Shown here one piece after another: positions 51,078 through 56,350 of a stretch of DNA of 64,000 nucleotides. This DNA comes from Bryobacterales bacterium. Its GTDB lineage: Bacteria; Acidobacteriota; Terriglobia; Bryobacterales; UBA6623. Position 1 is the stretch's first letter. Every line of letters starts with the position of its first letter. Position numbers and translations under genes: made by a program. Where the stretch lies: NCBI GenBank assembly GCA_022823865.1, contig JAJEHF010000065.1, positions 72,304 through 136,303 on the forward strand, given 5' to 3'. The notes under the pieces were generated by a model. The model was not told the origin of the DNA. It saw only the letters and a program-made list of their open reading frames with translations, and ran no database searches.

Positions 51078-51746
51078 CTAGAAGCGCCGCGATCCGAGGC
51101 GCCTCACGTCGAACTCGGCGGTGTGGGCCACGGCCATGACGGCCATCACGCCCGCTTGGACGGGGTCGGTAACGACCAGATCGGCGGCGTCAGGAACCGA
51201 GCCTGCCATGTTCAGCGAGATGACCAACAGACCCTTGGCCTGAACGGCGCGTACGGAGCGCTCGATCTCCCCGCCCATCAGGGCACCCGCCAGCACGACT
51301 GCCTCGACCCGCGGCAGGCGGGCGGTCGCCAGCACCGCCTCGGCGATCTGGCGCTCGCCGACCAAGGGAATCGTGTCCACGGAGATGCGCTCGCCGCGCA
51401 AATTGTGGCGGTCCGCTTCGGATACGGCACCCGCGACTACCTGGCCCACTTGCGAGCCGCCGCCGATGATCACGATGCGCTTGCCAAAGACGTGATGGTG
51501 GGTGTGATTGGTTTCAACCGAACGCACCCCGCCCAGCACGGCCAGAGCATCGACAATGTCGGCCGCCGGCCGCGAAGTCGCGATTTCGATCGCGATGGTC
51601 TCGACGGGCGCTTGGGCATCGAGGATGGAGATCCATGTGATGCGCGCGTCCAAGGCGGCCACTGCCTCGGCTATGAGGCGTAGTGCCGCACCATCGCCCT
51701 CCACCTCGATGGCAAGGGCCAATACGTTGTCTGCGTCGGTCCGCAT
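51078..51746 (-). CDS. ACT + DUF5612 domain protein (archaeal EhbQ/AF1403-like)
   Basis: FGKRIVIIGGGSQV..SEADRHNLRGERISVDTIPLVGE..LAGALMGG..SLNMAGSV..DPVQAGVMAVM. Confidence 0.8.
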   Translation of the reverse strand: MRTDADNVLALAIEVEGDGAALRLIAEAVAALDARITWISILDAQAPVETIAIEIATSRPAADIVDALAVLGGVRSVETNHTHHHVFGKRIVIIGGGSQVGQVVAGAVSEADRHNLRGERISVDTIPLVGERQIAEAVLATARLPRVEAVVLAGALMGGEIERSVRAVQAKGLLVISLNMAGSVPDAADLVVTDPVQAGVMAVMAVAHTAEFDVRRLGSRRF

Positions 51747-51861
51747 ACCGGGTCCCCTACCCTGACTTTCAGAATTACACAGTCACGCCAGCGGGCGATG
51801 TAGCCGCCACGGGAAGTGGCGCAACTGGACAAATGCTGCTATGCCATGATGGGCACCAGAG

Positions 51862-53196
51862 ATGGCCTCTCACATCCACGATCGAGCGGTGGGCACGCTG
51901 ACGCGAGAGCTCAGCAGGATCGTTTCGCAAGAGGTGCGCGATCCGGCGGTAGTAGCCATCCGAGTGAGCAAGGTCGAGCTTTCGCAAGACAAGCGAAACG
52001 CACACGTCTTGGTGGCGTTCTGGGACCCCAAGGACGGCGAAGAGCCGGGCCGTGAACCGTTGGAAGCCCTCGAGCGCGCGACCCCGTTCATTCGCAAGTC
52101 GCTGGGCCGCAGCTTGCGCATGCGCCACGTGCCGGAACTGCGTTTCTCGTACGATCTGGCCGAGCAGCACACCAGTCGCATTGAGACGCTGCTCAAGGGC
52201 ATTCGCGACGAAAGCAAGAAGGGGCTTGGGGTACTGTTCGCAGCCATCGCCCTGCAAGCAGCCGGGACCGCTGAGGTTTCAGCCCTAGAACGACTCGAAT
52301 CCTCAGCAGCAATCATGGGAAGCGAGTTCCGGATAGCCTGCTACGCCCCTACCAAGAAAGTCGCCGCCGGAGCAGTCACCGCCGCCTTTGACGAAGTTAG
52401 GCGAGTGGATGCCCTGCTGAGCAACTACAAGCAGGACAGCGAATTGAGCAGGGTTAACCGAGAGGCCAGTCGTGGCGAAGTACAGGTGTCGGAGGAACTG
52501 GCAGCACTGCTGGACCGCTGCCTGAGCTACTCCCGTGCAAGCGAGGGTGCCTTCGACATCACCGTCGGGGCCCTAGTCAAGGCTTGGGGGTTCTATGGAG
52601 GCGAGGGCAAGATGCCCCGCCCCTGGACTCTGTGGTGGGCGAGGAGGCACACCGGGTATCAGCACCTGCTGGTGGACCAGGCGAAGGGGACAGTACGGTT
52701 TACGCGGTCGGGCTTGCAGCTGGACCCGGGAGGTATCGGTAAAGGCTATGCAGTGGACCGTGCGATCGCGGCTCTACGAGAGTATGGAGTCGAGACCGCG
52801 CTAGTCAGCTCAGGCGCGAGCAGCATCTATGCGCTAGGAGCGCCGCCCGACAACGCCGATGGCTGGAATCTGGACGTACGGGGAGCCGACGCCAACGACA
52901 GCGAATTCATGACCGTGACACTGAAGAATGAGAGTCTGTCGACCTCCGGCTCCTACGAGAAGTTCTTCGACAAGGACGGCACGCGCTATGGCCATATCCT
53001 CGACCCGCGCACGGGGCAGCCCGCGCTGGGCATGACCGCGGTGTCCGTGATTGGGCCGAACGCGATCGACACGGAGGCCTGGTCGACCGCGCTGTTTGTG
53101 AATGGCGCCAAATGGGCGCGCAAGCATGGCGTCCCGGAGGGGCGGGTGTTGCTCTGCCCCGAGGGCGAGGCTTGCGGCTGGCTCGCCCAGGAGTGA
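51862..53196 (+). CDS. rbfA: RbfA (N-terminal ~120 aa) fused in frame to ApbE FAD:protein FMN transferase
   Basis: RbfA: VRDP..VSKVELSQD..ATPFIR..RHVPELRFSYD; ApbE: IMGS, LSNYKQDSELSRVN, SEGAFDITVG, LDPGGIGKGYAVD, STSGSYE, YGHILDPRTG; no stop between. Confidence 0.85.
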   Translation: MASHIHDRAVGTLTRELSRIVSQEVRDPAVVAIRVSKVELSQDKRNAHVLVAFWDPKDGEEPGREPLEALERATPFIRKSLGRSLRMRHVPELRFSYDLAEQHTSRIETLLKGIRDESKKGLGVLFAAIALQAAGTAEVSALERLESSAAIMGSEFRIACYAPTKKVAAGAVTAAFDEVRRVDALLSNYKQDSELSRVNREASRGEVQVSEELAALLDRCLSYSRASEGAFDITVGALVKAWGFYGGEGKMPRPWTLWWARRHTGYQHLLVDQAKGTVRFTRSGLQLDPGGIGKGYAVDRAIAALREYGVETALVSSGASSIYALGAPPDNADGWNLDVRGADANDSEFMTVTLKNESLSTSGSYEKFFDKDGTRYGHILDPRTGQPALGMTAVSVIGPNAIDTEAWSTALFVNGAKWARKHGVPEGRVLLCPEGEACGWLAQE

Positions 53197-53215
53197 GGCG
53201 GGCGAAGCAGCGGTT

Positions 53216-54241
53216 TTAGTTCAGCTCCGCACTGGCCGGGACGGAGCCAGGCTGCTTGCGGTGCGGGTGGCGGAAGAAGTCGACGGCCGACGCCTTGTGC
53301 ACGCAGGATATCGTGCAGGCTGGGGCGCACGCCTTCGGGGTGCGGTAGGCAGTGCGGATGTCTTCGACGGTGTAATCGGCGAGCGGAATTCCGGGGACGC
53401 CGCGCTGCTGGGAGCAGTAATGCACCAGCCCGTCCTCACAAATGTAGAGGTAGCGGGCTCCGGCCCGGCAGCTCCACTTGTTGACGTTGCCGTGGACTAG
53501 GTTGTCTTGGAAGTACGTTAGGCGGCTGTAGCCACGCTTGGAAAGGGCCTTGACACGCTCGTAGACGCGTCTTTCCACCTTGCCCAGCGGCTTGAGCTGG
53601 CCATCTCCGTCGTGGATTACGCCGACAGTGCTGGTGAAGCCCAGTGCCGTAGCACGCTTGGCAACGGTGTATGCGTCGCCTGGGTTGGGGATGCCGGATC
53701 CGACAACAGAGTTGATGTTGACGTCGAAGTCAGCGTGCTCCGCCAGCATTTCCAGTTTGCGGTCGAGGACGCGCAGACTCTTCATCGAGGTCTGGTCGGG
53801 CTCGACGTTGTCGATGCTGATCTGGAGGTACTCCAAGCCGGCATCGTTGAGCTGCTGAATGCGCGACGGCCCGAGCAAGTAGCCGTTCGTGATCAGGCCG
53901 GCGAGCATGCCGCGGGAGCGGATGTGGCGAATCAAGTCATCCAATTGCGGGTGCAGCATGGGCTCGCCACCGCTCATCGTGATGCAGCTGACGCCGAGAT
54001 CGGCCAAGGCGTCGGCGCGTTCAACCAAGACTTCGAAAGCAACGGGTGAGGAAACGTGGTCGTACTCGTTGCAATAGGCGCAGGCAATGTTGCAACGCCG
54101 GGTCGGAATCATGTGGGCCAAGACCGGATGGTCGGTATCGACCAGCGCCTTGGCGATCATGCGGGCCTCGCGAAGACCGCGATGGAGGCCAAGCATCCTG
54201 CGGCGAAAGCGCGTGCGCATGGGTACAGGTACGGTCGGCAT
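53216..54241 (-). CDS. Radical SAM protein with C-terminal SPASM/twitch-like cysteines
   Basis: CNIACAYC, SGGEPMLH, ITNG, QISID, CRAG..C..C..CTISC. Confidence 0.9.
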   Translation of the reverse strand: MPTVPVPMRTRFRRRMLGLHRGLREARMIAKALVDTDHPVLAHMIPTRRCNIACAYCNEYDHVSSPVAFEVLVERADALADLGVSCITMSGGEPMLHPQLDDLIRHIRSRGMLAGLITNGYLLGPSRIQQLNDAGLEYLQISIDNVEPDQTSMKSLRVLDRKLEMLAEHADFDVNINSVVGSGIPNPGDAYTVAKRATALGFTSTVGVIHDGDGQLKPLGKVERRVYERVKALSKRGYSRLTYFQDNLVHGNVNKWSCRAGARYLYICEDGLVHYCSQQRGVPGIPLADYTVEDIRTAYRTPKACAPACTISCVHKASAVDFFRHPHRKQPGSVPASAELN

Positions 54242-54579: not shown

Positions 54580-54655
54580 GCGGGAGTAACTCAGTTGGTA
54601 GAGTGCGACCTTGCCAAGGTCGATGTCGCGGGTTCGAGTCCCGTCTCCCGCTCCA
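54580..54655 (+). tRNA. tRNA-Gly(GCC)
   Basis: GCGGGAG..CGACC-TTGCCAA-GGTCG..GGTTCGAGTCC..CTCCCGC-T-CCA. Confidence 0.97.
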
Positions 54656-54688
54656 TGCTCGGGAAGGCTTCAGGCAAGCCGAGGTTTC

Positions 54689-54763
<75 letters not shown>

Positions 54764-55411
54764 GGCTCTAACCCCTTGGGTAGGCAGTAGTTCCCTGTGT
54801 TTTCAATGACTTATGTGAGCCAAGCCACATTCAGAAGTCTCAGCGTTCGGGAGCATTCACGAGCATTCGAGGCCATTCGCGAGCACTGAAAACGGAAAAA
54901 ATGGTCCGAATATGGTCCGGCGTAGCAAACGAATCCTGCCCGGTGCGGCCACATAGCGACGTGCGTGAGGAGACACATGCAGGCGTGCTATTCACCTCCG
55001 TGCCACGCCGATACGCTGGGATCAAGAGACAAGTCCACGTTGATGCGGGCGACACTAACGGTGCGCTCCTTTGAAGAAGGTGAGTGTCGCGTCATTTGCG
55101 ATGAGACACTCAAGGAACTGGCGCTTGCTACCAGCAACTCCCCGAGCGCACTAGCGTGCGGAACGCCCATGCTGGCGGGTCCCACGATCGCTGGGTGCCC
55201 AGATCAGCCCCTTCAACCGTCTGAACACGGCCTCGAATCTGTCGAGCGCATCGTCCAACCCCGGAAGTTCGTCGATTTGGTCCGGCGGCAGTCGGTTTAG
55301 GTGCTGTGTGCGGGGAGGTAGTGCTTAACCCTCTCGTCGCCATCCAGATCGCGCTCGCCGGCCACCCTGCCGACACGGTCAATGAACATACTGGACCGCC
55401 CCTAGCAGGCT

Positions 55412-56350
55412 GTGGCCTACGACGGCACGACGCTGGACCTGCCGGACGAGGAACGCAACCGGGAGGAGTTCGGGCTGCCAGGCGCGAGGCGCGGGCAGGC
55501 GGGCTTCCCAAAGGCGCGCGTGACGGCGCTGCTGGAACTGGGCAGGCGGGCAGCCTTCGCGTGGGAGCACGGCCCGTACCGGGAGTCGGAACGCAAGCAG
55601 AGGCCGAGCGCCTGCACCGGCACTTGCCGCCGGGGATGCTGCTGGCCGACCGGGGCTACCTCTGGGCCGACCTGTGGTTGTCGGCGGTGCGCAGCGGGGC
55701 CGACCTGCTGTGGCGCGTCCGTGCGGACACGCAGTTGCCGCCGAGCCAGGTCTTGGCCGACGGCTCGTTCCCCAGCTAGTTCGCCGGTGCGCCGGCGCGG
55801 GTCGTCGAATACATGCTCAGGGAGGCGGACGGGGAACTGTACCGGCTGCTGACGACTCTGCGCGACCCGCGGGCTGCCCCGGCCGCCGAGTTGGCTGCGC
55901 TGTATCACGAACGCTGGGAGATCGAGACGGCCTACGACGAGATCAAGACGCACCTGCTGGGGCGGCCTCCGCTCCTTCGCGGCAAGAAGCCCGAACTGGT
56001 GCGCCAGGAGATCGAGGGCCTGATGCTGGCCCACTACGCAGTGCAGCGCTTCCCGCACGAGGTTCCCCGGCAGGCCGACCAAGACCCTGACCGACTCTCG
56101 TTTCTACATGCCGTACAAGTCGTGCGCCGCCGGATCCAGAATCCCGGCGCTCCCCCCTGCGCGCCGCCAGCGGGCGCTTGAACGGGCGGTCTTGGAGGAG
56201 ATCCTCGAGGAGCGGGCCGAGTCCAATCCCGGCCAAGCCAAGCCGCGCGGCGTGAAACGGAAGATGAGCAAGTTCAAGATCCGGCACCGCGAACCGCTGT
56301 CGAGAGAAGTCCATCCGTGGGAGCCAGAAATCGCAGCTCCATGTCCTTAA
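55412..56350 (+). pseudogene. IS4-family transposase, 5'-truncated, with frameshifts and internal stop
   Basis: AYDGTTLDLPD, GFPKAR, LLADRGY, RLLTTL, LYHERWEIETAYDEIK, VRQEIEGL spread over several frames; TAG at 55777-55779. Confidence 0.88.

Follow-up and report, generated by a model that had tools for sequence, protein, structure and literature searches.

The window analyzed here is a stretch of 64,000 nucleotides (nt) from a Bryobacterales bacterium of the Acidobacteriota (assembly GCA_022823865.1, contig JAJEHF010000065.1, positions 72,304 to 136,303 of the forward strand), and it carries a single gene in which the ribosome-assembly factor RbfA is joined to the flavin transferase ApbE. 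The fused rbfA-apbE open reading frame (ORF) occupies 51862..53196 on the plus strand, with an ATG start and 444 codons followed by TGA, as placed by the ORF map and Pfam. An earlier reading made from the letters of this DNA (the sequence-only reading) had described a 444-amino-acid (aa) ORF with a complete RbfA, a basic and hydrophobic linker and ApbE, and this description was borne out by the ORF map, Pfam and NCBIfam. The RbfA module comprises residues 1-118 (51862..52215, plus strand), is predicted to be cytoplasmic, and matches Pfam RBFA (PF02033) over residues 8-111 (51883-52194; E 1.9e-21, 76.7 bits against a cut-off of 34.7). It also scores 73.9 bits against the cut-off of 51.15 of the NCBIfam rbfA equivalog TIGR00082. 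The ApbE module (E138-E444; 52273..53193, plus strand) is a predicted periplasmic FAD:protein FMN transferase and matches Pfam ApbE (PF02424) over residues 152-419 (52315-53118; E 2.3e-72, 244.2 bits against a cut-off of 25.6). Because the ORF falls below the cut-off of the E. coli-type ApbE equivalog NF007774 (141.7 vs. 498), the fused ApbE is classed by its sequence as a member of the family and not as the E. coli-type orthologue.

The two modules are connected by a short linker. A basic spacer of only 9 residues, K112-K120 (KGIRDESKK; 52195..52221, plus strand), separates the RbfA fold from the hydrophobic segment and is equivalent to the n-region of a former signal peptide. The hydrophobic segment itself, G121-A137 (GLGVLFAAIALQAAGTA; 52222..52272, plus strand), is a candidate internal signal peptide or signal anchor. 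Residues 119-135 of the fused protein correspond to the string KKGLGVLFAAIALQAAG. The uncharged run G121-A137 is 17 aa long; K119-K120 precede it, and E138 and a conserved ERLESSAAIMGSEF stretch follow it. Codons 95-151 contain no in-frame ATG, GTG or TTG and hold only near-cognate codons (CTG, ATT and ATC), which agrees with the earlier statement that the linker has neither a stop nor an in-frame start. The first ATG after the linker encodes M152, the first Pfam ApbE position, and this methionine is invariant in an alignment of 36 sequences (alignment A1).

These start codons bear on one alternative, in which ApbE and its signal peptide are translated separately from a start within the linker and the full-length fusion is minor or irrelevant. 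We consider this very unlikely. In five relatives at 87-95% likeness (L058, L060-L062 and L064), codon 124 is GTG and stands 6 nt behind a ribosome-binding-site-like AAGAAGGGG stretch (window 52213-52236), which might serve as an occasional internal start. A genus coded g8 keeps an ATG (GGMGV...) at the start of the hydrophobic run. Such a start is not conserved, however: codon 124 is GTA in the window and in L059, the window codons 95-151 lack ATG, GTG and TTG as described above, and no start residue is conserved family-wide. Initiation at codon 124 would also lose the basic n-region, and as long as no stop codon intervenes, all RbfA would still carry ApbE.

An in-frame joint between two such genes could also be a sequencing or assembly artefact or the mark of a pseudogene, an explanation whose probability is practically negligible here. 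Contigs assembled from two other samples cross the joint without indels. Specifically, record 7 of sequencing run X3 (51703-52399) and record 16 of run X4 (51925-52442) both bridge it with substitutions only and 0 gaps, so that the check proposed by the sequence-only reading for 52190-52270 revealed no indel separating the genes. No insertions or deletions at the joint are listed among the assembled contigs of the coded runs. Run X1, a possible source of this DNA, covers the full stretch with 0 differences, and the sequencing runs that contain this DNA are labelled as sponge and marine metagenomes. The relatives give the same picture. The relatives listed are the 120 best of 5884 proteins at E ≤ 0.001 (8000 scored), and 117 of them contain both Pfam domains, at identities of 94-46% and from many contigs and sources; the suggestion that relatives might all encode the two genes separately did not hold. 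Uninterrupted ORFs of 443-445 aa were found in nine public relatives labelled as Bryobacterales or Terriglobia metagenome-assembled genomes. The reading frame is thus kept over 46-94% identity, and both halves score like standalone genes.

The distribution of the fusion across the order was investigated by scanning 151 genomes with the RBFA model and reading the open-frame length around each match. Families were coded f1 (the window's own), f3 (the second) and f2 (the third). Among the RbfA-positive f1 genomes, rbfA lay in a frame of 439-783 aa in 60 of 61 (window included), the exception being G004 with a 165-aa rbfA frame. All six f3 matches lay in frames of 436-503 aa, and in all 71 f2 genomes rbfA was a standalone gene in a frame of 118-242 aa. 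None of the RbfA-positive f1 genomes scanned had a short-frame RbfA beside the fused one, and in the two genomes with two RBFA matches both copies were of fusion length. The assembly that holds the window (6.07 Mb, 94% complete) has no RBFA match besides the fused copy, which answers the question of a second rbfA that the sequence-only reading had raised. Direct confirmation of the fusion came from 18 fetched loci, of which six belong to f3 and 12 to f1. The f1 and f3 set counts L049, which tblastn did not recover and which was included on its Pfam match and an upstream frame that ends like the C-terminus of RbfA. A search for longer RbfA-containing proteins returned 34 matches, all of them this same RbfA-ApbE fusion; the search was word-based, misses distant RbfA fusions and is no census. 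Outside the order, rbfA and apbE were adjacent in 0 of the 17 genomes, all of other families, that had both parts among the matches listed (81 more stand outside these), and the two parts were either separated by more than 300 kb or placed on different contigs. The 121-genome tally outside the order includes three genomes flagged as unpublished (G216, G236 and G243), which underlie none of the specific statements made here. One fused relative, L054 (G012:C129), has an insertion of ~55 residues rich in Ala, Pro and Lys between the hydrophobic segment and the ApbE domain.

The linker was then compared with signal peptides, whose features were judged by inspection using three criteria: a basic n-region, an apolar h-region of ~7-15 residues, and small residues at positions −3 and −1. 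By inspection, the linker consists of KK, then GLGVLFAAIAL, then QAAGTA, which corresponds to a basic n-region, an apolar h-region and a c-region of small residues. The same plan recurs in 120 of 121 sequences anchored on the conserved motif, in which the sequence is variable and the character constant. Most of these 120 have a basic cluster (net positive) before the hydrophobic run, and their uncharged hydrophobic run has a median of 18 residues (range 8-26), often closing with Pro or Gly and small residues. The N-terminus of unfused orthologues consists of M and basic residues (e.g., M-K-H), a hydrophobic run and then small residues (A-A), ~14 aa before a conserved MG[ST] motif; the spacing in the window is the same. 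Fused linkers (n = 18) have medians of 18 uncharged and 13 apolar residues, and unfused N-terminal signals (n = 23) have medians of 18 and 12. Since both the position and the length match the N-terminal signals of unfused orthologues, the linker is the former signal peptide of ApbE, essentially unaltered and not remodelled into a longer anchor. The export signal of the fused protein is accordingly internal and not N-terminal, with a folded domain among the 120 residues ahead of it. Export through the twin-arginine translocation (Tat) pathway was rejected as a general route, as the twin arginine is not conserved in the linkers and an RR pair occurs only in the separate ApbE of the re-split genome G004. 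Lipoprotein processing was rejected for the window, whose linker is without Cys; in a few relatives the hydrophobic run does contain a Cys, for some of them in a lipobox-like context.

The origin of the fusion can be read from the f2 family, in which the arrangement is infB-DUF503-rbfA-apbE. A separate apbE lies just 3' of rbfA in all 12 f2 loci read, and 10 of the 11 f2 loci that were checked for it have infB and DUF503 on the 5' side. At two of these loci (L030 and L031) the TAA of rbfA is followed directly, and in frame, by the ATG of apbE. We regard the separate f2 ApbEs as orthologues of the fused ApbE on three sequence grounds: the shared RxE...MG[ST] start, the shared C-terminal CxxxxxCxW, and the single clade that the two form in the ApbE tree (support 99). 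By this comparison, the ancestor had rbfA and apbE adjacent and translationally coupled at the end of an infB-DUF503-rbfA-apbE operon. As TAA and ATG are in frame at L030 and L031 and one substitution there would give the architecture of the window, the fusion amounts to the loss of one stop codon, which joined RbfA in frame to the signal peptide of ApbE. Order-wide, apbE is the conserved last member of the infB-DUF503-rbfA operon (L010, L015, L030-L037 and others). Standalone RbfA is encoded in the infB operon, and infB-DUF503 still precedes the fused gene in four of the five f3 and f1 loci with enough flank (L005, L006, L007 and L011; not L012), whereas in the window genus the fused gene has moved away and infB-DUF503 lies on contig C33. 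The sole IF-2 match in the window's genome is on C33, followed by the DUF503 gene, and the earlier observation that rbfA is detached from infB is therefore correct.

The fused gene has also been taken apart. No RBFA (PF02033) match was found in 12 f1 genomes, namely 3/3 of genus g6, 6/7 of g7, and one each of g1, g8 and g10; they include G038, G044, G074, G086, G096, G100, G104, G106 and G108. TIGR00082 at E ≤ 1 gave no match in 5/5 such genomes tested (94-96% complete, three of them single-contig). In four of the 12 (L017, L018, L020 and L021), apbE directly follows infB-DUF503 with no rbfA part, and the ApbE orthologue in those four has 52-55% identity over residues ~133-442; at L017, the TTG start of apbE overlaps the DUF503 stop. 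As TIGR00082 is also blank in near-complete genomes, two or more f1 genera seem to have deleted the rbfA part and kept apbE. The genome G004 shows a different outcome (L019/L026, G004:C1:6729802-6731318). Here, rbfA ends with TGA and is followed by ~300 nt of unrelated sequence and then by apbE in another frame, with a signal peptide that includes an RR pair (…SRLQRRTLLSALL…). The G004 ApbE falls within the fused clade, where it groups with a fused protein from its own genus (support 93); the arrangement is a secondary split of the fused gene.

The condition of the RbfA half was assessed against standalone RbfA. Pfam RBFA scores run over 58.7-104.5 bits for fused proteins, a range that overlaps the 61-99 bits of standalone RbfA. 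Divergence of RbfA relative to ApbE gave a ratio of 1.30 for fused proteins (136 pairs, interquartile range (IQR) 1.23-1.40) and 1.26 for separate ones (55 pairs, IQR 1.18-1.35), both being descriptive values from non-independent pairs. At the level of sequence, we see no sign of relaxed constraint on the fused RbfA. RbfA proteins bind pre-30S subunits and support 16S maturation, and for the fused copy this ratio and its standing as the sole RbfA of the genome bear on that role only indirectly. RbfA chains in the PDB matched at E values of 7.8e-16 to 6.9e-08, the best being 1jos (7.8e-16), and E. coli RbfA on the 30S subunit (7afl) matched at E 5.5e-13, with residues 9-114 of the fused protein aligned to 11-116. 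The N-terminal 118 residues of the fusion thus match the family of standalone RbfA (E. coli 7afl/1kkg; H. influenzae 1jos). Standalone RbfA is a free protein of ~120-135 aa, whereas the fusion carries 326 further residues; in the place of the flexible C-terminal tail, it has the basic spacer, the hydrophobic segment and an exported enzyme of 307 residues. Within the type-II KH RNA-binding surface, the AXG motif is replaced by A-T-P in the window genus (52081-52092, residues 74-77, A-T-P-F), while it is AAG, ASG or AGG in several other fused relatives and A-x-G in several standalone RbfAs. The aromatic residue next to AXG is kept, as F76 in the window (in an FIR motif shared with E. coli RbfA) and as F, Y or W in the relatives shown. 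We take F76 to be equivalent to Phe78 of E. coli, a mapping that goes through the E. coli sequence and the alignment. According to excerpts of PMC8177701, Phe78 of E. coli RbfA stacks on the 3' end of the 16S rRNA.

The ApbE half is similarly intact. Thirteen ApbE/Ftp sequences in the PDB matched (E 1.9e-38 to 2.5e-26); among proteins of solved structure, it comes nearest to T. pallidum Ftp (4xdt, E 1.9e-38) and Salmonella ApbE (3pnd, E 1.5e-37). The full domain and the key residues of ApbE/Ftp proteins (T. pallidum 4xdt/4ifu, Salmonella 3pnd, E. coli 2o18) are also present in the fusion. Residues were mapped through HMMER alignments to the T. pallidum and Salmonella chains. In the 36 sequences of alignment A1, Y189, H378 and E405 are invariant and T409 is nearly so. 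In the Salmonella alignment, Y189 falls at the Tyr of STYKNDS, H378 in HxxDP, and E405 and T409 in the metal-site motif, where the Asp of ApbE is replaced by Glu (E405) in the fused protein. The histidine of HxxDP is a conserved residue of ApbE. For the remaining residues, roles were taken from portions of PMC4767422, which give, in E. coli numbering, Tyr60 as an FAD contact and D280 and T284 as part of the metal site; these E. coli numbers were carried over by inference to the Salmonella chain. Near the C-terminus, a cysteine pair C432...C438 (CxxxxxCxW; 53155..53175, plus strand) is invariant in 36/36 sequences of alignment A1 and also occurs in the unfused orthologues whose C-termini were displayed. 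Such a pair might suit a periplasmic disulfide. The alignments shown to solved structures stop at residue 416 or 437 of the query, short of this motif or within it. Together, the two halves look as if each probably does its ordinary job.

We favor, at a probability of roughly 0.6, an inherited fusion that arose by loss of a stop codon, in which ApbE is exported with likely cleavage and the two halves are not functionally coupled. RbfA would be made first and would stay in the cytoplasm. The hydrophobic segment would then enter the Sec pathway with its basic side inward, and the ApbE domain would be translocated across the membrane, leaving the 17-residue linker within it. Signal peptidase I would cut after the linker and free ApbE in the periplasm, for which the candidate sites are after G135 (A-A-G) or after A137 (G-T-A). 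We put such cleavage at about even odds or somewhat better, since the segment keeps the dimensions of a signal peptide and has small residues at its end. RbfA would be left with a hydrophobic tail of ~17 residues and, more speculatively, may either be held at the membrane or have the tail clipped like a spent signal peptide. The genome encodes two Peptidase_S26 and three Peptidase_M50 matches, and in E. coli RseP clears spent signal peptides (PMC8144685). The fusion therefore looks like a tolerated accident of gene order and not like a functional coupling, and its topology would do no harm, as RbfA, the partner that belongs in the cytoplasm, is on that side of the signal. The sequence-only reading had proposed a link, through the fusion, between ribosome maturation and export or redox state. 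We find this coupling unsupported: the loss of a stop codon suffices to explain the fusion, and the RbfA half evolves at the relative rate of standalone RbfA. It would also be dispensable, because sister genera (g6 and g7) deleted rbfA while keeping apbE and one genome (G004) re-split the genes.

A signal of this kind might instead stay uncleaved as a signal anchor. The product would then be a bitopic protein in which the cell's only RbfA is tethered ~9 residues from the membrane, and the helix would replace the lipid anchor of ApbE. Portions of a 2025 review of ApbE (PMC12052999) describe characterized ApbEs as mostly membrane-anchored lipoproteins with an N-terminal lipobox; the fused ApbE has no lipobox Cys and an internal signal, and its Cys-free helix could substitute. 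With 17 uncharged aa in the window and as many as 23-26 in relatives, the run could be long enough to cross a bilayer. RbfA binds in the mRNA exit channel, a site that PMC8177701 displays in its solvent-side views of the 30S subunit, from which we infer that tethering would not be sterically absurd. The segment is nevertheless no longer than true N-terminal signal peptides, and in five of the six f3 fused loci it has only 13-14 uncharged residues, which is short for a stable anchor. The Pro or Gly and small residues at its end resemble a c-region, and an anchor is not required, given that a periplasmic ApbE without a lipid anchor still complemented (portions of PMC12052999). We therefore view an uncleaved anchor as rather unlikely, though it is the main rival. 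The earlier proposal that the protein is either a membrane-spanning tether for RbfA or a polyprotein cut by signal peptidase is well supported as an either/or frame, the linker being homologous to the signal peptides of unfused ApbEs, while neither of its two alternatives is singled out.

The layout also invites comparison with the anti-sigma factor RsiV of B. subtilis and C. difficile, which is likewise N-in/C-out: its N-domain is cytoplasmic, a single hydrophobic segment follows, and a signal-peptidase motif lies at the outer face. RsiV is cut by signal peptidase at an A-X-A site and then by a site-2 protease, RasP (excerpts of PMC9044953), and it is a direct precedent for an N-in/C-out protein that signal peptidase cuts beyond its cytoplasmic domain. 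The two are unrelated in sequence. RsiV is cleaved once lysozyme binds, a kind of trigger that the fusion does not need, and the cargo released from the fusion would be a ribosome factor and not a sigma factor. A regulated release can be conceived on this model, with RbfA held at the membrane until ApbE is exported and then freed by signal peptidase and site-2 protease cuts. Its components are at hand, in that the genome encodes M50 proteases, RseP removes spent signal peptides (PMC8144685), and the fused protein is the sole RbfA copy in 60 of the 61 RbfA-positive f1 genomes. Nothing points to a signal or to regulation, however, rbfA was deleted in g6 and g7, the genes were re-split in G004, and a stop-loss accident explains the fusion, so that regulated release seems quite improbable. 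It would likewise be a long shot that the only RbfA is a membrane-held precursor through which late 30S maturation is metered by secretion capacity or envelope state, whether constitutively or in a circuit of regulated intramembrane proteolysis.

Several observations weigh against an uncoupled, inherited fusion with cleavage as favored above. The candidate signal peptidase I sites are weak evidence, because Ala-rich segments yield A-x-A-like motifs by chance. In the RNA run X20, contigs at 90-95% likeness cover parts of the ApbE half only and leave 51754-52239 uncovered; they derive from a relative at that likeness and do not support expression of a full-length message. The fusion has been retained over 46-94% identity with a single split (G004) and could be useful, since a neutral fusion would predict more reversions. 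A single origin in f1 and f3 is compatible with the ApbE tree, which places the two on one side of a branch with a support of only 32, and this value neither shows nor rejects a single origin over a double one. Lastly, the fused ApbE has no obvious client; proteins flavinylated by ApbE outside the cytoplasm include NqrB/C, RnfG/D and NosR. The genome has two further ApbE paralogues outside the window, both lipobox-like, L002 (…LAALCGC…) and L004 (…LLTC…), in the region G000:C82:27938-31760 and at G000:C160:14945-15781. The only FMN_bind match of the genome, at C82:27938, lies ~2.7 kb upstream of the paralogue L002, itself beside an NqrF-like gene, and is presumably NqrC by its position.

Other proteins with internal export signals offer a further comparison. 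The cytochrome b-c1 precursor FbcH of Bradyrhizobium carries an internal export signal. The Streptomyces Rieske protein, as outlined in portions of PMC13186574, has an internal Tat signal that exports its C-terminal domain, and the fusion resembles it in having its signal inside the protein. The Rieske signal is of the Tat type, whereas the linker of the fusion is Sec-like without a conserved twin arginine. The Rieske and FbcH partners belong to one respiratory complex; RbfA and ApbE serve unrelated processes in different compartments. Known ApbE fusions differ in the same direction, as those in PMC12052999 join the enzyme to its own substrate, fumarate reductase, whereas here it is joined to an unrelated cytoplasmic factor.

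We found no description of an RbfA-ApbE fusion in the literature, supplementary files excluded. In the portions of the 2025 ApbE review (PMC12052999) at hand, the stem 'ribosom' does not occur and fumarate reductase fusions are the only ones mentioned. Precomputed database annotations already show the architecture; they call these proteins RbfA in some cases and thiamine biosynthesis lipoprotein/FMN transferase in others, and either name conceals half of the protein. The join is unusual in that a cytoplasmic ribosome-assembly factor, the lineage's only RbfA, stands ahead of the export signal of a periplasmic enzyme. Its carriers belong to an acidobacterial lineage of soil and sponges, and the fusion has persisted across two families. 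It provides a natural test of how long an N-terminal extension before a signal peptide can be (here 120 residues, including a folded domain), of signal peptidase processing of internal signals in Acidobacteriota, and of whether RbfA functions when membrane-tethered or only after release. The f2 family with separate genes, the genera without rbfA and the one re-split genome are built-in controls. Even if it is only a tolerated accident, the locus is a clean, datable gene fusion through loss of a stop codon between coupled genes.

The surroundings of the fused gene are conserved among close relatives. Upstream, an intergenic region of 115 nt (51747..51861, plus strand) is shared with a divergent gene and is the presumed promoter region; a simple scan of 51600-53400 found neither sigma-70-like nor terminator-like sites (0 of either). 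The divergent gene encodes a 222-aa DUF5612 protein (51078..51746, minus strand; Pfam E 1.7e-63) and is kept as a neighbor in 8 of 9 close relatives. Downstream lies a convergent radical-SAM gene of 341 aa (53216..54241, minus strand; Pfam E 3.8e-19), which L029 and all 9 of the 9 close relatives keep. Farther along the window, genes for tRNA-Gly(GCC) and tRNA-Cys(GCA) were found at 54580-54763. The region 55300-56200 contains overlapping long ORFs on both strands and a DDE transposase fragment (E 4.9e-05), and is probably a remnant of an insertion sequence.

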